A stretch of 64,000 nucleotides of DNA from an uncultured Christensenellaceae bacterium (GTDB lineage Bacteria > Bacillota > Clostridia > Christensenellales > CAG-314), in NCBI GenBank assembly GCA_910586625.1, contig CAJUIZ010000003.1, forward strand, positions 55,254 through 119,253, written 5' to 3'. The translations under genes and the position numbers were made by a program. Below the pieces are notes generated by a model. It was not told the DNA's origin and made no database searches. It was given only the letters and a program-made list of their open reading frames with translations. Below are positions 5,828 through 63,666 of this stretch, piece after piece. Numbering within the stretch: the first letter of the stretch is position 1; each line of letters opens with the position of its first letter.

Positions 5828-6007
5828 TTACTTTTTCTTTTTTCCGAGTTTTATAATCAGCGTGTCGTCTTCTATTTCGAATTCGTTACGCTTTCTTTCG
5901 CGCGGCATTCGTCTGCGAAAAGACATTACGCACAGGTACACTATATAACCCAAACACAACGCGATGCCGACGGCGCAAATAATTATTACAGGTAAAACTT
6001 TATTCAT
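5828..6007 (-). CDS. small membrane protein (59 aa), hypothetical
   Basis: Internal ATG at 6007 is preceded by GGGGGA. One transmembrane helix is followed by a basic tail. The longer track ORF (to 6118) lacks an RBS. Confidence 0.4.
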   Translation of the reverse strand: MNKVLPVIIICAVGIALCLGYIVYLCVMSFRRRMPRERKRNEFEIEDDTLIIKLGKKKK

Positions 6008-6330
6008 ACATCCCCCGATGCGGCAGATTTGCCGCTGCAACGTAAGCATTGTAGCACACCGCCGCTGCGGTAAAAAGTAAAATACAAGGCTAATTTGTCT
6101 ATTTTGATAACAACGCACAGTTCCGTACGCGACGTGTCAAGCCGCAGCATACGAAGTGTAATCGGCGGCAACTAAAGATTAACGCTTGCGACAGAGTAAG
6201 AGAATTAGCGACCGACCGCCGTTACCGCAAGATACATAAAAATTTACAAAACGCAGAAACTAACGGTAATCGCTGCACATACGGAAAGTTCGAAGCGGCG
6301 TTAATGCTTAGAAAATAAACGGGAGAAAAT

Positions 6331-6756
6331 ATGAAAAAAATTATTTTAGCTATTATGATAATTGCAACGCTTTGCACGGCGTTTACCGCAACCTGCGCCG
6401 TAGGTCAAACGGCTGAAGAAAAAATATGCGAAATTGCAAAAAGCAACGACAAAATATTAGACGCGAAGTGCATAGTATACCAACGCACCTGTCTTGTTGC
6501 GATTAAAACTGAAAAATTCGTTACTCGCAGCGAATACGATCTGTATCTTGCAAACGTACGTCAACAGATTACTTCGGAATGCGAAATAGATAACGTTTAC
6601 GTTACGCGCAGTCCCAAGGTTATGAAAAAACTTAGCGAATTAGAAAAATTAAACGATAAGCAACGTCAACAGGCCATACAGGAAATAATAGAAAAAGAAC
6701 TGAACAAAGGTCTGCCGCCTATTAAGGACATTATGCCGAGATGTTTTAGTTGGTAA
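6331..6756 (+). CDS. secreted/lipoprotein, YhcN/YlaJ-like sporulation lipoprotein (tentative)
   Basis: Signal peptide MKKIILAIMIIATLCTAFTATC. Core pattern CIVYQRTCLVAIKTE...IDNVYVTRSPKVMKKL resembles YhcN/YlaJ family blocks as I recall them. RBS GGGAGA. Confidence 0.5.
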   Translation: MKKIILAIMIIATLCTAFTATCAVGQTAEEKICEIAKSNDKILDAKCIVYQRTCLVAIKTEKFVTRSEYDLYLANVRQQITSECEIDNVYVTRSPKVMKKLSELEKLNDKQRQQAIQEIIEKELNKGLPPIKDIMPRCFSW

Positions 6757-6763
6757 TAAATTT

Positions 6764-7052
6764 AATGCGCAACGCGCAATGCGTAATGCGTAATGAAGAA
6801 AGCCCGTTGGAACAACGGGCTTTCGTTTTTTATATAAGGTTACGCTTCGCTATATTTCTCGCTCGTTTGAAAACCTTCGCCGTCTTTTGGCGAAACTGCG
6901 CTACGCTCCGCTCGAAATGACGTTCCTTAGATTTCTCCACTCGCTTCGCTCGGTCGAAATGACGTTCATCTTCACTTCGTTCGATAAACGTTTCGGTAAA
7001 GGACACCGAATGTTGCGGCGTTCGCAAGTCTTCGACTTTCTCGGCTAAGGAC
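6764..7052 (+). repeat. composite modular repeat element, copy A
   Basis: Order of parts: five heptads (AATGCGC AACGCGC AATGCGT AATGCGT AATGAAG), a hairpin, AAGGTTACGCTTCGC, M1 (6931-6965), TCATCTTCACTTCGTTCGATAAACG, M2 (6991-7010), M3 (7017-7052). The order is colinear with copy D at 24332-24520. Confidence 0.8.
6798..6831 (+). terminator. rho-independent terminator embedded in repeat copy A
   Basis: GAAAGCCCGTTGG-aa-CAACGGGCTTTC followed by GTTTTTT, 40 nt after the stop of 6331-6756. Confidence 0.7.
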
Positions 7053-7215
7053 TTTTCTACAACTAACACCAAAAGCGAGCGTATTCCGCTTTTGCACCTT
7101 TGAGCGTAGCGAAACACGAGCCGCGTCAAACCAATCGCCGCAATGCGGCGTTGGCAGCAAGGCGAGAGCAAGGGCTGTGCCCGCAGCTTATAAAAGCGGA
7201 ATGCACGAGTGAATT

Positions 7216-8892
7216 CTATAAGTCGAGAATTTTTTCCACCGAAGCCACTACCAAGCGGAAGCTTTCTTCTTCGAAGGGGGACAGCAAGCCGCAGGCTTCC
7301 AACAGCTCGGTAAAGGTTTTGGTGCCGCCGTAATCGAGAAATTTGATATACTTTGCAAACGTCGCGTCGTAGTCCGTTTGGGAGAGCGCAAGAAATTGCA
7401 GCGCAGTAAACTGCGCGAAGCAGTAGTCTATGTAGTAGAACGGACTTTCGAAAATGTGCGCCTGACGCTGCCAACGGCGGCCGTCGCAAATTGCGGGTAT
7501 GCCTTCCGTAGTCATGGACGGGATAAACTGCTTTTCTATCTTGTTGTAAAACGCGTTACGCTCGGCAGGGGTCATATCGGGGTTGTCGTAGCAGGTTTGC
7601 TGGAAGTAGTCCACTATCGTGCCGTAGGGAATAAAAGTTACCGCTTCGCCGATGTGGTACAGCTCGTACTCCTTGGTTTTGTCGCCGAAAAACAGACCGA
7701 GCCACGGGTAAGCCAAAAATTCCATAGACATACTGTGAACTTCCGCCGTTTCCATAGAAACGCTGGACAAAAATTCGCTTTCGATGAAGAAGGACTTGTA
7801 GAACTCCAACGCATGACCGAATTCGTGAGTTAATACGTCCACGTCGCCCGCGGAGCCGTTCCAGTTGGACAGAATGAAGGGAAGCTTGTATTGCGGCAGA
7901 CCTTCGCAGTAGCCGCCGCCCCACTTGCCTTCGCGGCTCATTACGTCGAAGCACTCGCTCTCTACCATTGTGTCGAACAGCTTGCCCGTTTCTTCGGACA
8001 TTTCGTTGTACATTTTGGAAGCGTTGGCAAACAAATCGTCGGGAGTGCCGACGGGGCGGGGTTCTTCCTTGGTGTACACCTTCATATCGTAGGCGTATTC
8101 ATGCTCGATTCCGAGAGTTTTGTCCGCCTTGGCGCGTATCTTGCTTGCCAAAGGCACAAGATACTTCAATACGTTGGCGCGGAACTTGGCAATATCTTCC
8201 TTGCCGTAGCAGTTGCGCTGCATTTGCTTGTACCCGAGCGGCGAAAATCCGTCGTAACCCAGCTTGCGCCCCATAGCGGTGCGCACCTTAACGAGCTTGT
8301 CGTAAATTTCGTCCAGTTGGTTTTTGTTATCTTCGATAGCCTGACCGAACTTCATATAAGCGGCGCGGCGAACACTGCGGTCGGCGTGCGTAAAGTACTT
8401 GCTTATGCCGCTTAGCGGAAGCTTTTCGCCGTTGAAGTCGATAACAATCGAGCTCATAAGCTTGGTGTAGGCTGTGGTAAGCTTGTTTTGCTCTACCTTT
8501 TCGTTTACAATGCGCGGGTCGTTAGCGTCCACCGCCATTTGCAAATTAGTAAACATAACGCGCGGAAAACGCTGCTCCAACTGCTTGCGGAAGGGCGTAT
8601 CCAAATAGCACCTTGCAATCTCCGCCGAAGCGACGGAAATTTCCGGACCTACTTCGTCAAGATAATCCTGCTCCGTAGCGTAAAACTCGTTGCGCGTATC
8701 CTGCGTAAAGCGTATAAACGCAATGCGTACGTTGGTGCCGAGCTTTTCGTCGTAGTCCTTGTATTCGTCGTGAACGGCGTAGAACTCGTCCACCGTTTCG
8801 GCGGACATAAAACGCTTTTTGAAATCGGCAAGTTTTGCCAGTACTTCGTCCTTGTTGGGACGGACGTATTTTATTTGAGAAATTTTCACCAT
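7216..8892 (-). CDS. pepF: M3 family oligoendopeptidase F
   Basis: HEFGHA zinc motif and overall M3B-like sequence. I chose the start at ATG 8892 (AAGGAGAG RBS) rather than the track start 8967. Confidence 0.85.
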   Translation of the reverse strand: MVKISQIKYVRPNKDEVLAKLADFKKRFMSAETVDEFYAVHDEYKDYDEKLGTNVRIAFIRFTQDTRNEFYATEQDYLDEVGPEISVASAEIARCYLDTPFRKQLEQRFPRVMFTNLQMAVDANDPRIVNEKVEQNKLTTAYTKLMSSIVIDFNGEKLPLSGISKYFTHADRSVRRAAYMKFGQAIEDNKNQLDEIYDKLVKVRTAMGRKLGYDGFSPLGYKQMQRNCYGKEDIAKFRANVLKYLVPLASKIRAKADKTLGIEHEYAYDMKVYTKEEPRPVGTPDDLFANASKMYNEMSEETGKLFDTMVESECFDVMSREGKWGGGYCEGLPQYKLPFILSNWNGSAGDVDVLTHEFGHALEFYKSFFIESEFLSSVSMETAEVHSMSMEFLAYPWLGLFFGDKTKEYELYHIGEAVTFIPYGTIVDYFQQTCYDNPDMTPAERNAFYNKIEKQFIPSMTTEGIPAICDGRRWQRQAHIFESPFYYIDYCFAQFTALQFLALSQTDYDATFAKYIKFLDYGGTKTFTELLEACGLLSPFEEESFRLVVASVEKILDL

Positions 8893-9002
8893 AATAATAC
8901 TCTCCTTTACTGCATTAAGTATATAACATTTGTTTTCGTTTTGCAACCTTTTGAACGAATGCAACAATGCAAAAGAAATAACAATGTGTCGCTGTGCTTT
9001 TT

Positions 9003-9200
9003 AATGCGTAATGCGTAATTAGAAAAGCCCGTTTGACAACGGGCTTGCGTTTTTATAAGGTGTCGCTGCGCCGAACTTCTCCGTACGCTTCGCTTTTTTA
9101 ATGCGTAACGCGCAATGCGCAATGCGTAATTAGGGTTACGCTTCGATAGACTTCTCGGCTACTTGTCATGTCGAGCGCAGTTTCGGCAAAGGTCGCCGAA
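9003..9200 (+). repeat. modular repeat region, copy B (two heptad arrays)
   Basis: Heptads at 9003-9023 plus hairpin AAGCCCGTTTGACAACGGGCTT (9025-9046). A partial M1 lies at 9075-9095. A second five-heptad array is at 9100-9134, and M2 (TTTCGGCAAAGGTCGCCGAA) is at 9181-9200. Confidence 0.75.
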
Positions 9201-9240
9201 CGTTGCGAGACGTCTATGCGAGCGGAGCGAGTAGCATTTT

Positions 9241-10266
9241 TTACATAGTATCGCGTGTGGCGGTAGACTGAACGTCGGCAGCGACGCGTTCGACTTTGTC
9301 AAGAAAGCCCGTTACCGTGCGCGTATACAGCGCCTTGTCCGTCAAATGGCTGCGGGCGTGTCCCGCGCCGTCGAACAAATGCAGCTCGGACAGGGAATTG
9401 CGGCATACGGCGTACATATCTTCGGAGTGATGCGGAAAAATGAAGTCGTCCGCCCTGCCGTGAATGAAGCAAATGGGAACGTCGCTGCCCTTTACGTCTT
9501 CGATAGGACGGCACTTACTGAAATCGTAGCCGTAGAATGTTTTAGCCATGCTTGCGCAATAGTCCACTATCGGACGGGACGGCAGGTGAAACAGATGCTC
9601 GAACAGCTCGCGGTAGTAGCCTTCCGTATCGGAAAAGGGGCAGTCGGCAACCACCAAATCCACGTCGGAACGCAAGCCCAACACCGACAATACCGTAGCC
9701 GCGCCCATACTCTCGCCGTGGAGAGCTATAAAACAATCGTTACCGAATTCGCCGCGCGCGTAATCTATCACAATAGACAAATCGGCGCGTTCGTAGTACC
9801 CGAGAGTACAAAACTTACCCTCCGATTCGCCGAAATACGCGTGGTCGTAAATTATTACGTTGTAGCCCGAGTTATAAAATATCTCGGCGTATTTGAGCGA
9901 ATTGAGCCTGTTCATTGTGTGTCCGTGGCAGATAATCGCTGCCTTTTGCCTGCCGTTAACTTGCGCAGCCTTGCTATTGTATATCACTTCTCCGCGCAGT
10001 TTGCCGTGTAGTCCGTTGATATCGAACGTTTTTTTGTTCCAGTTGTTGTCGTAATCGGTATAATCGACGTGTTCTACGGACGTTTGACGTTGACGCACTT
10101 CTTCGAACGTGTGACGCACTGGCGTACATGCAGTACACAAAACGAAACGCGCCATAATAAGACACGCTATCTGCCAAAGTATAATAAGCCCTGCCACCAC
10201 GCCCAAGCAGACCAAGAATATCTGATATGGCGCAAGCGGCGTTAAGGTCAGAATCAAATTTAACAT
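9241..10266 (-). CDS. alpha/beta hydrolase with N-terminal membrane anchor
   Basis: HGESMGA nucleophile elbow, with D and H further downstream. Start ATG 10266 has a GGAGAA RBS. The track's 115-aa N-terminal extension overlaps the upstream SDR gene and I rejected it. Confidence 0.8.
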   Translation of the reverse strand: MLNLILTLTPLAPYQIFLVCLGVVAGLIILWQIACLIMARFVLCTACTPVRHTFEEVRQRQTSVEHVDYTDYDNNWNKKTFDINGLHGKLRGEVIYNSKAAQVNGRQKAAIICHGHTMNRLNSLKYAEIFYNSGYNVIIYDHAYFGESEGKFCTLGYYERADLSIVIDYARGEFGNDCFIALHGESMGAATVLSVLGLRSDVDLVVADCPFSDTEGYYRELFEHLFHLPSRPIVDYCASMAKTFYGYDFSKCRPIEDVKGSDVPICFIHGRADDFIFPHHSEDMYAVCRNSLSELHLFDGAGHARSHLTDKALYTRTVTGFLDKVERVAADVQSTATRDTM

Positions 10267-11119: not shown

Positions 11120-11398
11120 TTACTTATTGGATAAATCATTTACTAACGCATTTATATGCGCTATTTGTTCGTCGGAAAGATTGCTGACGTCGATTACTCG
11201 GTCGAAACTTAAACCCAACAAATAATCGCACGATACGTGAAAAAATTGAGCTATCTTGACAAGCATATCAATAGACGGCTGAATGTTGTCGTTTTCCCAA
11301 TTGGACACGCACTGTTTGCTAACGCCCAATTCTTCGCCTAATTTTACTTGGCTGATATTCATCGCAATACGCAATTCTTTTATTCTTTCGTTCAACAT
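11120..11398 (-). CDS. XRE family HTH transcriptional regulator
   Basis: ISQVKLGEELGVSKQCVSNWEN helix-turn-helix. ATG 11398 follows a GGAG RBS. Confidence 0.8.
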   Translation of the reverse strand: MLNERIKELRIAMNISQVKLGEELGVSKQCVSNWENDNIQPSIDMLVKIAQFFHVSCDYLLGLSFDRVIDVSNLSDEQIAHINALVNDLSNK

Positions 11399-11485
11399 AC
11401 CAACTCCATTATGTACCAATTTTCAATACAATTATACAAATTTAGTTGACTAAATAAAAATACTATGGTATTTTAATAATTGACT

Positions 11486-11755
11486 ATGAGTATACCGAGA
11501 GATGTGAACAACGTACTAAAAAAGATGTACGGGGAAAACTACAACATATGCGAAGTTTTGGAAAAATTGCTTGGACCGATAGGAAACGAAGAACGCGAAA
11601 CGTACGACAAGCTGTTGTCCAATATGTCTGACGAGCAAAAAGAACTGTTATGCCGATACCTGCGTCTGTATGGCGAAAGAGTATTCAGAATGCAATGCAG
11701 AAGGTTCGAATTGGGCTTCAAAGCGGGACTGTCAGCAGAGAAAAGCAAAGATTAA
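11486..11755 (+). CDS. small hypothetical protein divergent from the XRE gene
   Basis: About 90 aa, helical, ending in FELGFKAG. It resembles small proteins seen beside XRE genes in Clostridia (recollection only). The start could instead be TTG at 11480. Confidence 0.45.
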   Translation: MSIPRDVNNVLKKMYGENYNICEVLEKLLGPIGNEERETYDKLLSNMSDEQKELLCRYLRLYGERVFRMQCRRFELGFKAGLSAEKSKD

Positions 11756-11887
11756 GAATAATTAAACACACAAGGAACCGTCAAAATTCTGACTTTCATA
11801 AATAATTTTACCTGCAACAAAAACTAATAGCCCGCTAACTTCGTAAGCGAAGTATAGCGGGCTACATTTTATTCGGTGTTTACTTTT

Positions 11888-12280
11888 CGTCATTGCGAGG
11901 CATTTATGCCGAAGCAATTTAGACATTTAAGCTACTGTATGAGTTTATAATACAAATCTTCCCAATTGGGATTCATCGTTTCTATCAAATTTAACTTTGC
12001 TTTGCGAGAACCGCCTTTTATTTGCTTTTCACGTTGGATTGCATCGGTAATATCCGCAAATATTTCGTAATATCCGAGTTTATCGACGTTGTACTTTTTA
12101 GTAAAGCCATCGACGGTTTTGCTTTTATGTTCCCAAACTCGACGAATTAAATTATTCGTTACACCGGTATACAATGTGCCGTTTCGAAAATTAAACATTA
12201 TATACACATAAGAAACGCGATTGTTCATATTTTACTTGTTTATTCTGGATTGCTTTGTCGCTTCGCTCCGCGCAATGACG
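11888..12280 (-). mobile_element. candidate minimal GIY-YIG unit: nuclease ORF bracketed by inverted hairpin motifs
   Basis: Left end is CGTCATTGCGAGG (11888-11900). Right end is CCGCGCAATGACG (12268-12280), whose reverse complement CGTCATTGCGCGG matches 12 of 13 positions. Each end sits in an ATTGC...GCAAT hairpin. I saw no target-site duplication. Confidence 0.4.
11932..12228 (-). CDS. GIY-YIG nuclease family protein (UPF0213/COG2827 type, 98 aa)
   Basis: YVYIMFNFRNGTLYTGVTNNLIRRVWEHK...REKQIKGGSRKAK is the classical GIY...YTG...R..EH...E core. Confidence 0.85.
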   Translation of the reverse strand: MNNRVSYVYIMFNFRNGTLYTGVTNNLIRRVWEHKSKTVDGFTKKYNVDKLGYYEIFADITDAIQREKQIKGGSRKAKLNLIETMNPNWEDLYYKLIQ

Positions 12281-12354
12281 GCGGGGATAATGCTTGTTGC
12301 GGTAGTATAGAGTTGGGACTGAATAATAAAGAACGGAATATTTGCGGCGGCGCG

Positions 12355-14226
12355 CTATTCCGTTTGCAGGGTTTCCCATTCCGTCATTACCTGTTCCAAT
12401 TCGGCGTCGGCTTGGGACAGACGCTGTAATACGGGCGCGAGCTTAGAATAGTCCGCGGCATACTCGGGTTCGGCGGATTTAGCGTTTAAGTCTGCAATTT
12501 CCGTTTCCAATTCCGTAATACGGTTTTCCAACTCCTTTAGCTTCTTGGCGCGGTTGGTTTCTTCCGCGCGCTGACGCGCGCTGCGATAGGTTGACTGCGC
12601 CGCCTTGACAGGCTTGGGCGAATTTGCTTCGGCGGACTTCTTGGCGGACGAGTACGCTTCGTAATTGCCTTCGGAGACGGTAAGAGAGTTATTTTCCAAC
12701 ACGGCTATCTTGGTGGACAGGGCGTTTACGAAATACCTGTCGTGCGAAACGAACAGCAGCGTTCCCGAATACTCAGTCAACGCTTCTTCCAACGCTTCGC
12801 GGGAAGGAAGGTCAAGGTGGTTGGTTGGCTCGTCGAGCAGCAACAGGTTGCAGTCCTTAGCCATAATCATTGCAAGCCCCAACTTTGCGCGTTCGCCGCC
12901 CGAAAGGTCGGACACGCGCTTGTATACGTCGTCTGCGCCGAGAGTTACCGCGGCAAGCAGACTGCGCACTTCCGTCTGGCTCATACGGGTGTTATCGAAC
13001 CACAGCTGATCCAACACGCGCAGGTTTCCTTGAAGATTAAGGTTTTCCTGATCGTAGTAGCCCACGCGGACGTTTTTGCCGAAAACTATCTTGCCCAAGT
13101 CCTGCGGTTTGGGCGAAGCTATGCGCTTGATAAGCGTGGACTTGCCGCTTCCGTTCAGTCCCAAAAGAGCGACCTTGTCGCCGCGCTTGACGGTTAAAGA
13201 CGCATTGGACAAAAGCGGCTTGTCGTAGCCTAAGGTCATATCGGACAACGTAAGCGGAAATTCCGACGGTTCGGACGAATAGCCGAACTTGAAACGCGGC
13301 GGCTGCTCGTCCCGTTTGGGGGCTTCTATCAACGTCATTTTGTCCAAAGTTTTTTCGCGTGATTTAGCCATATCCGCCGTGGAAGCCCTAACCTTGTTGC
13401 GGGCTATGTAGTCGGTAAGCTTGGCTATTTCCTTTTGCTGCTTGTCGTATTCGCGGCGTAAACTCTCGCGGCGTTCCGCCTTTAACGCCTTGTACTTGGT
13501 GTAGTTGCCCTTGTACGTTTCGACACGCTTGTGCTGTACGTCCCAAACGGAAGTACACAGCTTGTCCAAGAAATATCTGTCGTGCGACACTACCAACAAG
13601 GTAGACTTCTTGTCGGAAAGAAACGCTTCCAGCCAGTCTAAAGTTTTGTAATCCAAATGGTTGGTAGGCTCGTCCAATATAAGCAGCTCGGGGCGTTGCA
13701 GCAGCAGCTTGCACAATGCCGCCTTGGTCTTTTCACCGCCGGACAAGGTGGAAACCGTTCTGTCGGAGAACTCCGCCATTCCCATACCGTTAAGCACCGT
13801 CTTCACCTTGACTTCGCAGTCGTACGCTTCCGAAACGTCCGCTTCGACGGTCAAACGGTGATACTTGTCCGCAAGCCGACGGTATTCGTCGCCGTCTGCC
13901 GCTGCCATAAGACGCGCGGTTTCGTTTAACTGACCGATCAAACGCGTTTGCTCGGAGAACACGGTCATCAATTCGTCGAAAAGCGTAAGCGACGAATTGA
14001 AATCGCTGTTCTGCCGAAGAAATCCCATAGTTAAGCCGTTTTTTTTGTAAATGGAACCGGAAAACAATTCCAAATCGCCGTATATACAGGAAAGCAACGT
14101 GCTTTTGCCAGCGCCGTTCGCGCCGACAACGCCGACGTTGTCCCCTTCGTTAAGCTCCAAATTTACGTCTTGGAAAACGGTAACGTCGCCGAAACGGAAC
14201 TGAGCCTGTTTTAATTGCAGTAACAT
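12355..14226 (-). CDS. ABC-F family ATPase (Uup/YdiF-like, C-terminal coiled coil)
   Basis: Two Walker A motifs (GANGAGKST, GLNGSGKST), two signatures (LSGGEK, LSGGER), no transmembrane domain and a charged linker. The C-terminal heptad-like tail is KKLKELENRITELETEIADL. Confidence 0.9.
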   Translation of the reverse strand: MLLQLKQAQFRFGDVTVFQDVNLELNEGDNVGVVGANGAGKSTLLSCIYGDLELFSGSIYKKNGLTMGFLRQNSDFNSSLTLFDELMTVFSEQTRLIGQLNETARLMAAADGDEYRRLADKYHRLTVEADVSEAYDCEVKVKTVLNGMGMAEFSDRTVSTLSGGEKTKAALCKLLLQRPELLILDEPTNHLDYKTLDWLEAFLSDKKSTLLVVSHDRYFLDKLCTSVWDVQHKRVETYKGNYTKYKALKAERRESLRREYDKQQKEIAKLTDYIARNKVRASTADMAKSREKTLDKMTLIEAPKRDEQPPRFKFGYSSEPSEFPLTLSDMTLGYDKPLLSNASLTVKRGDKVALLGLNGSGKSTLIKRIASPKPQDLGKIVFGKNVRVGYYDQENLNLQGNLRVLDQLWFDNTRMSQTEVRSLLAAVTLGADDVYKRVSDLSGGERAKLGLAMIMAKDCNLLLLDEPTNHLDLPSREALEEALTEYSGTLLFVSHDRYFVNALSTKIAVLENNSLTVSEGNYEAYSSAKKSAEANSPKPVKAAQSTYRSARQRAEETNRAKKLKELENRITELETEIADLNAKSAEPEYAADYSKLAPVLQRLSQADAELEQVMTEWETLQTE

Positions 14227-17999: not shown

Positions 18000-18029
18000 A
18001 CAAGGCTTTCTCCTTTATGTTATTAAATA

Positions 18030-18201
18030 AATGCGGGTGCGCTGCGCTTTTTTAATGCGTAATTAAAGGTTTCGCTGCGATAGACTTCTCCGCGCGCAAC
18101 ACTGACGTGTTGCTTGGTCGAAGTGACATTTGCAAGGTGTCGCTTCTCTTCTTAATGCGTAATGTCGGAAGCCCGTTGGAACAACGGTCTTACATTTTTT
18201 T
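18030..18201 (+). repeat. modular repeat region, copy C
   Basis: Heptads at 18054-18067. M1 at 18084-18129 carries an internal GCAACAC-tgac-GTGTTGC stem. Further heptads are at 18154-18167, followed by a degenerate hairpin (18169-18191) and T7. Confidence 0.75.
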
Positions 18202-18216
18202 ATAAGGTTTCGCTTG

Positions 18217-19611
18217 TCAGACGATAAATTCCGCGCTGTCTTGGGGGGCGTTGTTCATTTCTTCCGCTTTGCTCTCGTAGCCGTTACGTCCGAACAGAGC
18301 GTAGGTCGCGTCCTTGCCGCCTTCTACGCCCGGCTGATTGTACGCGTTGACATTTAACAGCGCGCCTTCGTACGCGGTGCACAGCTGCAACAGATAAATA
18401 AGCGAGCCCAAATGGTATTCGTCCAACGAATCCAGCGACAAAGTGAAATTGACGCGTCCGCGCTTGGTAAGATTGTAGCGCGTGGCGTACAATTCCTTAT
18501 TGGTAAGCTCCGCAAGCGTATGTCCGCACAAAAAGTTAACGTCGGCAAAACCGTCGCAGCCCTGCGGAATTACGATATCGCTGCGGAAGCTGTTTACTTC
18601 CAAAAACGTTATTACCTTGTCGAACGGGCCTTCGTTGTACAACTGAACCTGACTGTGCTGGTCGGTAACTCCGAGCGCTTTGACCGGAGTTTGCCCTGCG
18701 TTTACCACGTCGCCGTCAAGGTCGCGCTCCTTTCCCAAACTTTCCGCCCACAGCTGCGCGTACCAATCGGCGACGTATTTGAGACTGTCGGCATAGGGCA
18801 TCATAACGTTTATGTTGCAGCCTTTGTTTATCAGCAGATACTGTATAACCGCCATAGTAAGCGCCGGATTGACGTTTAAGTCGTCCGATTTGCACAATTC
18901 GTCCGTTTCTCTCGCTCCACGCAGAAGCTCGGAAATATCTATTCCCAAAACGGCCGCGGGCAGAAGCCCAACGGGAGAAAGCACTGAAAAACGTCCGCCC
19001 ACGCCATCGGGAATATAGAACGTTTCGAAACCGTTTTCCTTGGCGAGTTTGACGAGATTGCCCTTATTAGAGCTGGTTGTGGCAATGATATGCCGACTTG
19101 CCTTATCGCCGAGCTTGCGTTTTAACAGGTCGGTAATTATAAGATACTGACTCATCGTTTCGCTTGTAGCGCCCGACTTGGTTATGACGTTGAACACCGT
19201 CTTGCTTACGTCGATTATATCGAACAAGGCGTTCATACGTTCGGGATCTACGTTGTCTATTACGTAAAAACGCGGACCCTTGCGCATTTCGCGGGGCAGC
19301 TCGTTGTAATACAGATGCTTTAACGCGTTGAATACGGCTATTGCGCCGAGAGCCGAACCGCCTATGCCCAAAACAACGAAGTTTTCGCATTCGTTACGTA
19401 TTTTCGCGGCGGTTTCGACGATACGTCCCACTGCTTCCGCCTGATTGTACGGACTGTCCATCCAACCCTGCATATCCGCGCCGCGGCTTGCTTCCACCTT
19501 GGCGCGCGCCTGCTTGGCAAGCTGCCGCATTTGTTCCAATTCTTCCCTTTTTATTCCGTGTTTGCCGACCTTTGCGAACATTACGTTGTTGTAATTAAGT
19601 TTTACGCTCAT
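18217..19611 (-). CDS. pgi: glucose-6-phosphate isomerase
   Basis: Firmicute-type PGI of about 450 aa (VVLGIGGSALG, GGRFSVLS). Start ATG 19611 (MSVKLNYNN) has an AGAAGGG RBS. I rejected the track's N-terminal extension. Confidence 0.9.
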   Translation of the reverse strand: MSVKLNYNNVMFAKVGKHGIKREELEQMRQLAKQARAKVEASRGADMQGWMDSPYNQAEAVGRIVETAAKIRNECENFVVLGIGGSALGAIAVFNALKHLYYNELPREMRKGPRFYVIDNVDPERMNALFDIIDVSKTVFNVITKSGATSETMSQYLIITDLLKRKLGDKASRHIIATTSSNKGNLVKLAKENGFETFYIPDGVGGRFSVLSPVGLLPAAVLGIDISELLRGARETDELCKSDDLNVNPALTMAVIQYLLINKGCNINVMMPYADSLKYVADWYAQLWAESLGKERDLDGDVVNAGQTPVKALGVTDQHSQVQLYNEGPFDKVITFLEVNSFRSDIVIPQGCDGFADVNFLCGHTLAELTNKELYATRYNLTKRGRVNFTLSLDSLDEYHLGSLIYLLQLCTAYEGALLNVNAYNQPGVEGGKDATYALFGRNGYESKAEEMNNAPQDSAEFIV

Positions 19612-22657: not shown

Positions 22658-24340
22658 ATGAAAAACAAGTGGTACAAGGAAGCTGTATTTTACCAAATTT
22701 ATCCGCGAAGCTTTAAGGACTCCGACGGCGACGGCGTGGGCGACATACGCGGAATAATATCCAAAATAGACTATTTGGCGGATTTGGGCGTAGACGCTAT
22801 TTGGTTTTCGCCCCTATACGCAAGCCCCAACGCCGACTACGGCTATGATATATCCGACTACAAGGCGATAAACCCCGAATACGGTACGATGGACGACTTC
22901 GACGAGATGGTACGCCTGCTGCACGGCAAAGGCATACGGGTAATAATGGACCTTGTAATAAACCACACCAGCGACAAACACGAGTGGTTTGTCAATGCCC
23001 GTTCTTCACGCGATGACCCTTACCGCGACTACTACTACTTCCGCGACGGACGGGGCAAAAACGGCAAAAAACCGCCCAATAACTGGACGAGCTTTTTTGT
23101 GGGAAGCGCGTGGAAATACGAAGAAAACACAAAGCAATGGTATCTGCACCTGTTCGACGAAAACCAACCCGACCTTAACTACTTTAACCCGCGCGTTATG
23201 GAAGAAATAAAGGGTATTCTGCGCTTTTGGCTGGATAAGGGCGTGGACGGCTTCCGCTGCGACGTGATTACGCTGCTTTCCAAAACGGCGGGACTGCCCA
23301 GCGGCAAAAAGCGAATTGCGCTGACAGGCAGCGAATACTACATTGACGGCGACAGAATGGAAGAATATCTAGGCGAGCTTCAAGAAGTTCTGCGCGAATA
23401 CGACGCCTTTACCGTGGGCGAAAGCGTGTTTATTACGGTAGATAAAGCGTTACGCTACACAAGCGAAGACAACGAATATCTGACCACCGTGTTTTCCTTC
23501 GACCACGTTTCGGCGGACAATCGTTTCGGGATAAAGCAACTGCCGAAAAAATTTAATCTGCTTGACTTGAAGCGGGCGTTGACCCGTTGGCAGAACGGCT
23601 TGTACGGCAAAAGCTGGAATACGCTGTTTTGGGAAAACCACGACAGCGCGCGCATTGTGGGCAGGTACGTTAGCGACAGGGTAAACCGCGAAGAAGGGGC
23701 GAAGATGCTTGCGACCGTGCTGCTTACCCTTTCCGGAACGCCGTTTATCTATCAAGGGCAGGAGTTCGGCACGATTTCCGCAAGAATGACGGATATAAAG
23801 GACTACAAGGACGTGGACGCGCTACGCAGCTACGCTTTGCTTAAAAAGCTGTTCGGGAAGAAAAAAGCCATGAAAAAATTAGCGTACTGCTCGCGGGATA
23901 ACGCGCGTACCCCCGTGCAATGGGACGACACGCAAAACGCAGGCTTTACGACAGGCGAGCCTTGGCTTAAAGTTGCGCCGAGCTATCGAGATATTAACGC
24001 GAAGCAAGCGGAAAAGGACGGAAATTCCGTACTGCACTACTACAAAAAACTTATAAAGCTTCGCAAAGGCGACAAGGCGTTTGTGTACGGCAAGTATCAA
24101 GACCTGTTGCCCAAAAGTAAAAAGCTGCTTGCGTATCTCCGTGAAAGCGAATACGGAAAACTGATTGTGATAAACAATTTTTCGCTGAAAACCGCGAAAT
24201 TTACACTGCCGAAGGGTATAGACGGCGGCGCGTATACGCTGATTACAAGCAACTACGCCGATTCGCCGAAAAAACTTGGAACTACGGCTTTACGCCCATA
24301 TGAAAGTATTGTGTATAAAGCCGACGGCAAAAATGCGTAA
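22658..24340 (+). CDS. GH13 alpha-glucosidase / oligo-1,6-glucosidase
   Basis: FYQIYPRSF, DLVINHTS, DGFRCDVI, GESV and WENHDSAR conserved regions. Confidence 0.9.
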   Translation: MKNKWYKEAVFYQIYPRSFKDSDGDGVGDIRGIISKIDYLADLGVDAIWFSPLYASPNADYGYDISDYKAINPEYGTMDDFDEMVRLLHGKGIRVIMDLVINHTSDKHEWFVNARSSRDDPYRDYYYFRDGRGKNGKKPPNNWTSFFVGSAWKYEENTKQWYLHLFDENQPDLNYFNPRVMEEIKGILRFWLDKGVDGFRCDVITLLSKTAGLPSGKKRIALTGSEYYIDGDRMEEYLGELQEVLREYDAFTVGESVFITVDKALRYTSEDNEYLTTVFSFDHVSADNRFGIKQLPKKFNLLDLKRALTRWQNGLYGKSWNTLFWENHDSARIVGRYVSDRVNREEGAKMLATVLLTLSGTPFIYQGQEFGTISARMTDIKDYKDVDALRSYALLKKLFGKKKAMKKLAYCSRDNARTPVQWDDTQNAGFTTGEPWLKVAPSYRDINAKQAEKDGNSVLHYYKKLIKLRKGDKAFVYGKYQDLLPKSKKLLAYLRESEYGKLIVINNFSLKTAKFTLPKGIDGGAYTLITSNYADSPKKLGTTALRPYESIVYKADGKNA

Positions 24341-24520
24341 TGCGTAACGCTCAATGCGTAATGAAGGAAGCCCGTTTGACAACGGGCTTACATTTTCAGA
24401 AGGTTACGCTTCGCCGAATTTCTCCACGCGTTCGCCACGCTCGCTTGGTCGAAATGACTTTATCTTCACTTCGTTCGATAAACGTCGGCGTTTGCGACTG
24501 ACGTCGCTCGGCTAAGGACA
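24332..24520 (+). repeat. composite modular repeat element, copy D (colinear with copy A)
   Basis: Order of parts: five heptads at 24332-24366, hairpin at 24368-24389, AAGGTTACGCTTCGC, M1 at 24418-24458, TTATCTTCACTTCGTTCGATAAACG, M3 at 24487-24519. The first heptads overlap the last codons and the stop of the alpha-glucosidase gene. Confidence 0.8.
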
Positions 24521-24572: not shown

Positions 24573-24807
24573 GACTTCTCCACGCGGGGCTTCGCCCCTT
24601 GGTCGAAGTGACATAATAAATAGTTAATCGAACTGATGTAATAAATATTGGTCGAAATACTCCGCATTATTGCTTATTCATATATTAAGCAATTGTTTTG
24701 ATAGCATTTTTAGTATTATTACCGATAGTGATGCTCCGTTTCGCCAAAGGGCGGCGAAGGCATAGATGCACGGGCGTTCGCATTGCAAGCAACGCTTGGC
24801 TAAGGAC
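24573..24807 (+). repeat. additional hairpin modules (M1, M2, M3)
   Basis: M1 at 24573-24613 has stem GGGGC-ttc-GCCCC. M2 (TTTCGCCAAAGGGCGGCGAA) is at 24739-24758. An M3 variant is at 24773-24807. Confidence 0.7.
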
Positions 24808-24900
24808 ATAAACTAATAAAAACAACGCCTGACAAATTGTCGGGCGTTTATGATTGCCGTTTATTTTTTATGTGGGGGGGGATAAAAACATCACTTCTTC

Positions 24901-24998
24901 GTCAAAAGCATTTTCGCATATTCACTTTTCAATGCGACGTAACTTCTCAGTCAAAAGCATTTTAACATAATAACTTTTCAATGTAACGAATTTGCTTG
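24901..24998 (+). repeat. 49-bp tandem direct repeat, two units at about 70% identity
   Basis: Unit 1 starts GTCAAAAGCATTTTCGCATATTCACTTTTCAATGCGACG. Unit 2 starts GTCAAAAGCATTTTAACATAATAACTTTTCAATGTAACG. A G8 tract lies at 24874-24881. Confidence 0.7.
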
Positions 24999-63631: not shown

Positions 63632-63666
63632 ATTTCTCCGTTCGCTTCGCTCAGTCGAAATGACAT
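63632..63666 (+). repeat. solo M1 hairpin module
   Basis: ATTTCTCCGTTCGCTTCGCTCAGTCGAAATGACAT matches the M1 consensus TTCTCC...GTCGAAATGAC. Confidence 0.7.

Follow-up and report, generated by a model that had tools for sequence, protein, structure and literature searches.

Within 64,000 nucleotides (nt) of an uncultured Christensenellaceae bacterium (GenBank assembly GCA_910586625.1, contig CAJUIZ010000003.1, positions 55,254 to 119,253), here called the window, a single small GIY-YIG nuclease gene is enclosed by two short inverted repeats. The locus raises the question of what kind of nuclease this is, and whether the repeats belong to it, be it as recognition motifs or as the ends of a movable unit. 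We consider it highly likely that the gene is a member of the Ssn family and that its flanks are a heads-out pair of the motifs of this family, in a class with ATTGC arms. The architecture of gene plus motifs is already published as NTS-ssnA-NTS and is not a new kind of system. Directly supported here are the domain and its residues, a motif layout that is conserved with the gene over phyla, the boundaries of the unit, and its presence or absence between species.

The reference for the comparison is SsnA of Neisseria meningitidis, a 94-amino-acid (aa) single-domain GIY-YIG protein (Chenal et al., Nat Commun 2025; PMC11893778). Its binding target is the repeat CGTCATTCCCGCGMAVGCGGGAATCYRG, recognised solely when the DNA is single-stranded, and the cut falls a few nucleotides upstream of this target. 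The repeat is a case of a short oriented hairpin motif named SRM, which is called NTS in Neisseria, where cutting depends most on the GTC preceding the palindrome and binding depends most on the C that follows it. Mutating the SsnA residues Y6, Y17, and E64 abolished cleavage, and the tested Ssn members left double-stranded DNA uncut. The homologs, for which Chenal et al. required E<1e-10 to N. meningitidis SsnA, correspond to CDD cd10448 (GIY-YIG_unchar_3) and occur in thousands of bacteria, with at least one motif nearby in 71% of the Ssn loci and motifs on both sides in 42%. In Neisseria, SsnA limits the recombination of incoming single-stranded DNA near the repeats (PMC11893778).

The window gene starts with ATG and encodes a protein of 98 aa. 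The Pfam domain GIY-YIG (PF01541) covers residues 6-80 (E=3.4e-15), and no other domain was matched in the Pfam and NCBIfam profile searches. NCBIfam offers no family name for the protein, where the model of a group I intron endonuclease (TIGR01453) reaches 16.6 bits with a cut-off of 56. The residues Y9, Y20, R30, H34, and E67 are intact and invariant among the aligned homologs, with Y9, Y20, and E67 being invariant across 24 of them. The spacing of these three, 11 plus 47 residues, equals that of Y6, Y17, and E64 in SsnA, the SsnA positions being taken from the published text (PMC11893778). The BLASTP matches to three homologs (L048, L068, and L082) have E-values of 4e-39 to 5e-38 at 58-63% identity, and since the NTS of Neisseria flanks these homologs, differing at no more than one position, they served as a proxy for the comparison with SsnA. 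The PDB sequence search found no solved Ssn structure. Its best matches, the UPF0213 proteins 1ZG2 (E=0.002) and 1YWL (E=0.018), show a marginal similarity, which argues against placing the protein in the neighbouring cd10456 family. The gene is present once in the window, 126 nt downstream of an ABC-F gene (12355-14226) in the same orientation, with a strong two-way terminator hairpin following downstream of it (Table 1).

The preliminary description of this DNA, made from the sequence alone, had reported the 98-aa open reading frame (ORF) with its GIY-YIG core, inverted repeats around it that match at 12 of 13 positions, unit centres that differ between the two ends, and a distance of about 75 nt to the ABC-F stop codon. 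The ORF list, the PF01541 match, and the inverted repeat pair I5 bear this out. The heads, CGTCATTGCGAGG at 11888-11900 (+) and CCGCGCAATGACG at 12268-12280, have 12 of 13 positions complementary. The left, downstream loop reads GAGGCATTTATGCCGAA on the plus strand and differs from the right, upstream loop, which reads GCGGAGCGAAGCGACAAA on the minus strand, and 74 nt separate the ABC-F stop codon (12355-12357) from the head at 12280. From CGTC head to CGTC head the unit measures about 393 bp. The preliminary description had named a 13-mer common by chance across the genome as a point against its proposal. In the 64 kb, the 13-mer head occurs with at most one mismatch only at these two sites, and with at most two mismatches at six sites, versus 1.66 expected. 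The upstream unit has the features mapped for the SRM, which are a GTC on the 5' side, a palindromic core, and a C on the 3' side (C-GTC-ATTGC...GCAAT-CCAG). The downstream unit has the GTC and the palindrome, with a T in place of the 3' C, and its 17-nt loop holds a GGCAT/ATGCC mini-stem.

Table 1. Coordinates of the gene, its flanking units, related repeats, and adjacent hairpins in the window
Feature	Positions	Strand	Parts, evidence, or remarks
ssn-type gene	11932..12228	-	ORF list, PF01541, homolog alignment, BLASTP
Upstream SRM-like unit	12245..12280	-	Sequence; inverted repeat I5; ends 16 nt before the ATG
Upstream unit, parts		-	CGTC 12280-12277, ATTGC 12276-12272, 18-nt loop GCGGAGCGAAGCGACAAA, GCAAT 12253-12249, CCAG tail 12248-12245
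Downstream SRM-like unit	11888..11922	+	Sequence, DNA fold; inverted relative to the gene
Downstream unit, parts		+	CGTC 11888-11891, ATTGC 11892-11896, 17-nt loop GAGGCATTTATGCCGAA, GCAAT 11914-11918, tail TTAG
M1-type unit CGTCATTTCGACCGAGCGAAGCGAGTGGAGAAATCT	6931..6963	-	Layout of the flanking units; degenerate second copy with head at 6911-6921
M1-type unit TGTCACTTCGACC...GGAGAAGTCT	18084..18127	-	Not present in the corresponding intergenic region of strain L002
M1-type unit AGTCATTTCGACC...GGAGAAATT	24418..24458	-
M1-type unit TGTCACTTCGACCAAGGGGCGAAGCCCCGCGTGGAGAAGTCCAG	24574..24612	-
M1-type unit TGTCATTTCGACTGAGCGAAGCGAACGGAGAAATCCAG	63632..63664	-
Terminator-like two-way hairpin	11826..11866	.	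RNA fold -30.4 kcal/mol, z -5.3, U-rich stretch after it; inverted repeat I12
Weak terminator-like hairpin over the ABC-F stop	12332..12364	-	Inverted repeat I20; AACGGAATA..TATTCCGTT, then a T-rich run; context only

Such inverted repeats might be unrelated to the protein, being chance pairs, terminators, or generic repetitive extragenic palindromic (REP) elements beside a housekeeping repair nuclease of the UPF0213/Slx1-like kind. The upstream unit is thermodynamically undistinctive, REP-type elements pile up at the 3' ends of genes (PMC3733652), and the nearest solved structures are UPF0213 proteins. The homolog scan speaks against this explanation. It covered, with one genome per species, 80 loci (L004-L083) at 53-73% identity from more than 15 phyla, with members in Heliobacteriaceae, Campylobacteraceae, Muribaculaceae, Cyanobacteria, Rickettsiales, Legionellales, Chloroflexota, candidate-phyla-radiation groups, and others. 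Our unit detector, defined as a GTC directly followed by a stem of at least 5 bp, finds a forward unit upstream in 59 of the 80 loci, an inverted unit downstream in 64, and units on both sides in 50. The controls, 573 windows of 200 nt from the same loci, yield 70 hits on the forward strand and 61 on the reverse strand, or about 12% on a given strand, so that the flanks carry a unit at about six times the control rate. The ATTGCGA class alone accounts for 45 of the 80 loci upstream and for 47 downstream, 38 loci having it on both sides, and the same 5-nt arm occurs on both sides in 44 of the 66 loci with heads on both sides. With the same motif class and orientation around the gene in most loci, a motif that travels with the gene into new contexts (see below), a 13-mer found nowhere else in the window, and a merely marginal UPF0213 similarity, we regard repeats unrelated to the protein as very improbable.

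The comparison of homologous loci also shows that the arms covary, with the pairs ATTGC/GCAAT, ATTCCC/GGGAAT, ATCCCGG/CCGGGAT, ATTTC/GAAAT, ATCCCAGAC/GTCTGGGAT, ATTCT/AGAAT, and ACTGC/GCAGT. The consensus across 46 upstream homolog units reads N-GTCATTGC-GAG..CGAA-GCAAT-C. As DNA, GCGAAGC forms an unusually stable mini-hairpin; among 99 homolog loops, 13 contain it exactly and 24 contain GCGNAGC. No conserved sequence was found outside the heads in the 46 upstream and 43 downstream aligned units. The upstream neighbour is co-oriented with the gene in 58 of 69 loci, by a rough ORF-based count, which fits a gene that has no room for a promoter of its own inside the unit and is expressed by read-through.

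Several points weigh against the assignment to the Ssn family and its motifs. The published SRM pattern HGTCWYN(0-2)YYVSBRHN(0-5)WNVSBRGN(0-2)RNCYNB, which finds the Neisseria NTS used as a control, has no match in the 64-kb window, and the two flanking units need three and four substitutions to fit it. The downstream unit has a T (11919) after GCAAT instead of the usual C, the position most important for SsnA binding; in the homologs a T never follows GCAAT, and a C does so in 43 of 46 upstream and 35 of 43 downstream units. The predicted stem (ATTGC/GCAAT) is just 5 bp long, and the upstream unit, like the canonical sequence, is no more stable than shuffled sequences (z about 0 with DNA and RNA nearest-neighbour parameters). 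Most Ssn homologs belong to Gram-negative bacteria (PMC11893778). The members of the ATTGC class are known from sequence alone, and the comparison of the protein with SsnA uses the proxy homologs and the SsnA residue positions given in the published text.

Some of these points can be qualified. Few of the 80 nearest homologs match the published pattern either (6 at the upstream flank and 9 at the downstream flank), which indicates that the failure reflects the pattern and not the locus. As the ATTGC type is largely missed by this pattern, the published association figures of 71% and 42% are probably too low for this branch of the family. The ATTGC motif dominates the nearest 80 homologs, yet it largely escapes the published search. 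The T at 11919 may mark a downstream copy that is decaying at a fixed site. As for the folding, the preliminary description had labelled both units as hairpins. The downstream unit folds better than its shuffles (DNA -6.1 kcal/mol, z -2.2 to -2.4), and the pairing of the arms is supported mainly by the comparison between loci, because predicted stability does not support a hairpin in the upstream unit. A permissive Rfam scan of 11600-12500 gave sub-threshold chance matches only, so no described RNA family accounts for the hairpins.

For the function of the unit we infer binding, single-strand specificity, and the cut position by homology to SsnA. A unit would be expected to fold whenever its strand becomes single-stranded, be it in replication or in DNA that enters by transformation or conjugation. 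The protein would then recognise the palindrome together with the GTC bordering it on the 5' side and the C bordering it on the 3' side, and the GIY-YIG site formed by Y9, Y20, R30, H34, and E67 would cut just outside the CGTC head. The expected substrate would be single-stranded DNA with CCGCCGTCATTGCGCGGAGCGAAGCGACAAAGCAATCCAG. Since the two units are inverted, each strand would offer a single site for cleavage, located at the unit's 5' outer edge. The likely role in the gut host would be to control, near the repeats, either recombination or incoming single-stranded DNA, as proposed for Neisseria.

Besides the motif itself, we considered whether gene and ends form a discrete, movable unit. 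The three closest homologs on long contigs, from related Clostridia, lie in unrelated neighbourhoods: P0008 (86% identical) between the genes for DAP epimerase and CTP synthase, P0002 (88% identical) after a RelA/SpoT gene, and P0020 (83% identical) before an acyl-ACP thioesterase gene. All three resemble the window from CGTCATTGCGAGG...GCAATCCAGAAGAAAA-ATG through stop-CTTnAnnGTCTGGATTGC...CGCAATGACGG, and the similarity stops exactly at the CGTC heads. The gene and its ends are a compact discrete unit bounded by the CGTC heads, which agrees with the unit of about 390 bp proposed in the preliminary description.

The gene is also missing from related loci. At the nearest ABC-F ortholog (L087, 85% identity), the DUF6809 gene and the helix-turn-helix (HTH) gene follow after 218 nt and the GIY-YIG gene is absent, the corresponding spacer in the window being 599 nt. 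The ABC-F orthologs with 77% and 76% identity (among L087, L088, and L089) likewise lack the gene, and none of these three loci has a CGTC-type head. An exact empty site in the sister species L087 could not be defined by alignment, as the intergenic DNA is too diverged, and the absence rests on gene order. Within the species the locus is fixed, with the gene in all 23 contigs read that have the identical protein and all 24 with the identical ABC-F; every site found with the exact ABC-F, or with the variant 98% identical to it, is filled. Insertion polymorphism is therefore present between species and absent within the species. The empty ABC-F 3' region that the preliminary description had looked to is seen as gene order in related species and not within the species, and the fixed position that it had named as speaking against a mobile unit holds within the species and fails between species. 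No target-site duplication or shared target was found across the five contexts or the 46 plus 43 aligned units. Presence or absence between species and boundaries at the CGTC heads are the kind of evidence needed for the idea of a mobile unit.

The preliminary description had framed the protein in terms of homing. A free-standing GIY-YIG homing endonuclease would cut a double-strand target in gene-less alleles and be copied in by repair, a reading favoured by the GIY-YIG domain, the weak sub-threshold TIGR01453 match, and the presence or absence between species. The framing is a misfit. The 98 aa comprise the catalytic domain only, without a linker or DNA-binding domain, the gene is not located in an intron, intein, or phage, the units have inserted into intergenic regions that are unrelated and share no single conserved target, and the tested family members spare double-stranded DNA (PMC11893778). 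We give homing next to no credence. An annotation as an Ssn-family single-strand nuclease would be preferable to homing endonuclease, and also to "GIY-YIG nuclease family protein".

The preliminary description had further noted that the heads resemble the end of a dispersed repeat module, M1, and this resemblance is real. The M1 head GTCAYTTCGAC has five exact and three one-mismatch copies in the window against 2.0 expected, and none of 100 shuffles reaches eight. The heads lie mostly on the minus strand, within intergenic repeat clusters. The repeat GTCAYTTCGAC...GAGAARTC reads in full, on the minus strand, YGTC-AYTTC-GACC...GGAG-AARTC-CAG, which matches the layout of the flanking units (CGTC-type tag, palindrome starting with AT, C tail), and the GAGCGAAGCGA core is often common to both. 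A metagenome search for two inverted M1-type heads 340-370 nt apart returned 128 segments, 52 of which have proper units at both ends. Among these, 27 enclose a GIY-YIG gene that is 39-59% identical to that of the window, and the remaining 25 are dense repeat arrays. Judging by the enclosed genes, M1 is the class of motif that goes with an Ssn clade further removed from the window gene, and its arm class, ATTTC, differs from the ATTGC arms around that gene. The link to M1, put forward as speculative, is supported in kind, with the same layout and with ATTTC-type units flanking more distant GIY-YIG homologs.

The comparison with strain L002 adds observations on the repeat-bearing regions. The two strains are about 94% identical, with 10-25 differences per 250 nt outside the hypervariable spots, which lie at 18000-18250, 8950-9290, 6740-7230, and 6000-6250, with 120-390 differences per region. 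The L002 versions of these regions are much shorter and lack several M1 units.

The Ssn reading can be extended, and remains compatible with the extension, by taking the unit as an autonomous insertion sequence (IS)-like element, now or in the recent past, whose nuclease cuts the heads and drives the copying of the unit and of gene-less CGTC repeats (M1 and relatives), in a manner like the proposed spread of REPINs by RAYT transposases. As in an insertion sequence, inverted repeats enclose an enzyme gene, the 12/13 heads lying heads-out at its outer edges like terminal inverted repeats. The 83-88% identical homologs in unrelated contexts, with similarity ending at the heads, and the syntenic loci with 85%, 77%, and 76% identical ABC-F that lack both gene and CGTC-type head also suit such an element. 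An identity of 55-73% over more than 15 phyla implies frequent horizontal transfer, the repeat-bearing intergenic regions are hypervariable between the two strains, M1 copies differ, and Chenal et al. themselves liken NTS-ssnA-NTS to an insertion sequence in their discussion (PMC11893778).

There is, however, one copy in the 64 kb, at a position fixed in 23/23 and 24/24 contigs, and no target-site duplication or conserved target outside the heads. GIY-YIG enzymes hydrolyse DNA without a covalent intermediate, which means that rejoining would need host functions. One cleavable site per strand would leave simple excision unexplained, no Ssn is known to transpose, and the dispersed M1 units have ATTTC arms whereas the gene's own flanks have ATTGC. 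We consider autonomous IS-like behaviour plausible but less likely than not. About as probable, in our judgement, is the broader idea that an Ssn gene with two heads-out motifs is a self-contained mobile unit and that Ssn nucleases are the agent behind the whole CGTC-tagged class, including the ATTGC and ATTTC/M1 types. The suggestion of the preliminary description that the unit is a source or mobiliser of the repeat family accordingly stays conjectural, the known Ssn activity being single-strand cutting, the locus being fixed within the species, and target-site duplications being absent.

Beyond the unit itself, the window neighbours of the gene are chromosomal housekeeping genes. A divergent pair lies beside the unit, with an HTH gene (Xre/cI-like) at 11120-11419 (-) and a DUF6809 gene at 11480-11755 (+), and this pair is kept in the sister species even without the GIY-YIG gene. 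The two-way hairpin at 11826-11866 is outside the unit and probably serves both strands, terminating transcription of ABC-F/ssn (minus) and of DUF6809 (plus). In L087, the gene-less spacer between ABC-F and DUF6809 (2740-2900) has TTGACA and TATAAT 17 nt apart, close to a consensus promoter. The next 130 nt or so have no called gene and end in a T-run, and this stretch may be a small RNA.

A 59-aa ORF at 12250-12429 (+) runs through the upstream unit and reads "..CRFAPRNDGG..", which is the peptide signature ..PRNDG.. that the preliminary description had mentioned for repeats next to such genes. The ORF is spurious, a translation artefact of the repeat and not a gene, and small ORFs that translate such repeats (..APRNDG..) can be dismissed as non-coding.

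A stretch of 57 nt at 12282-12338 is deleted in strain L002 and present in L211. It contains the 3' arm of the weak hairpin over the ABC-F stop, so that arm and T-run are lost. The deletion stops some 6 nt short of the CGTC head, on its outer side and close to the expected Ssn cut; this is a single case and may be a coincidence. A BLAST break at 12281 had suggested a recombination tract that starts exactly at the CGTC head. This reading does not hold, as the break is due to the deletion, and a profile of single-nucleotide differences per 250 nt places the low-divergence tract between about 12544, inside the ABC-F gene, and about 9500. This tract of about 3 kb is near-identical to L002 (0-3 differences per 250 nt) between flanks of about 94% identity, and it holds the 3' end of ABC-F, the GIY-YIG unit, DUF6809, HTH, a short-chain dehydrogenase, and a hydrolase. 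It is probably a recent recombination between strains, with ends inside genes and away from the repeats.

Other repeats accompany the M1 units. A second module consists of heptamer runs of TAATGCG (also TAACGCG and CAATGCG), a GC-rich hairpin (AAGCCCGTTGnnCAACGGGCTT), and a T-run, and is terminator-like. It is found at 6761-6831, 9000-9056, 9097-9130, 18153-18200, and 24329-24399, where it adjoins M1 units and a AAGGTTACGCTTCGC module in mosaic intergenic clusters that recall BIME/NIME arrays. In the cluster after the hydrolase gene, at 9166-9240 (+), two CGTC/TGTC-tagged units have other arm types, TGTCATGTCGAGCGCAGTTTCGGCAAAGGTCGCCGAAC and CGTCTATGCGAGCGGAGCGAGTAGCAT, the former resembling the degenerate unit at 6880-6921. 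Near an M1 cluster, 24888-24985 comprises two tandem copies of a 49-nt unit that are 80% identical (family D12).

Among the known systems, the stand-alone GIY-YIG proteins of UPF0213/COG2827 (Escherichia coli YhbQ; Bacillus halodurans BH0048, PDB ID 1ZG2; Enterococcus faecalis EF2693, PDB ID 1YWL) have a similar length of about 100 aa, but their similarity to the 98-aa protein is marginal (E=0.002 and 0.018). To our knowledge, an association with flanking repeats has not been described for UPF0213 proteins. The I-TevI-type homing endonucleases share the catalytic domain and differ by a long linker plus a DNA-binding domain, by double-strand cutting, and by their location in introns or phages, none of which is seen here.

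The closest likeness is to SsnA and its NTS/SRM. Each protein consists of one GIY-YIG domain and measures about 94-98 aa, the Tyr/Tyr/Glu spacing is shared, and both genes are flanked on each side by an oriented motif with a CGTC tag, a palindrome starting with AT, and a C tail. Related repeats are dispersed in the genome, and the distribution over phyla is wide and patchy. The locus differs in its ATTGC/GCAAT arms with a 17-18-nt loop, compared with ATTCCC...GGGAAT and an 8-nt centre in Neisseria, in its host, which is an uncultured gut lineage of Gram-positive-type Clostridia, and in a downstream unit without the C tail.

A second body of work concerns palindromic repeats grouped into one superfamily by their unpaired CGTC tag, by stems that open with A-T pairs, and by a CCA tail (Di Nocera et al., BMC Genomics 2013; PMC3733652), which were said to "lack a dedicated transposase". 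The flanking units and the M1 units share with them the unpaired CGTC (TGTC) tag beside an A-T-starting stem, a CCA-type tail (for the upstream unit and part of the M1 units), a position downstream of genes, and frequent inverted pairs. The superfamily repeats have stems of 8-9 bp and loops of 4-5 nt, whereas the units here have a 5-bp stem and loops of 17-18 nt. Within the 64 kb covered, the ATTGC type has the two flanking copies, and the M1 type has the five exact and three one-mismatch heads. The Ssn paper (PMC11893778) does not cite the 2013 survey (PMC3733652), so the two literatures appear to be unconnected. Joined together, the CGTC-tagged superfamily, described in 2013 without an enzyme, gains an obvious candidate partner.

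The RAYT/REPIN system and the TnpA transposases of IS200/IS605 resemble the locus in having a single-copy small nuclease gene between hairpin repeats that it recognises, gene-less copies scattered in intergenic regions, and hairpins recognised in single-stranded DNA. RAYT and TnpA are HUH (Y1) tyrosine transposases that form a covalent link to DNA, whereas the GIY-YIG hydrolase is the sole domain here. Transposition is demonstrated for IS608 and inferred for RAYTs, while the demonstrated activity of Ssn is single-strand cutting. If Ssn nucleases were nonetheless the agent behind the CGTC-tagged class, they would be a hydrolase-based counterpart of RAYT/REPIN, in which every Ssn clade and its particular arm sequence evolve together.

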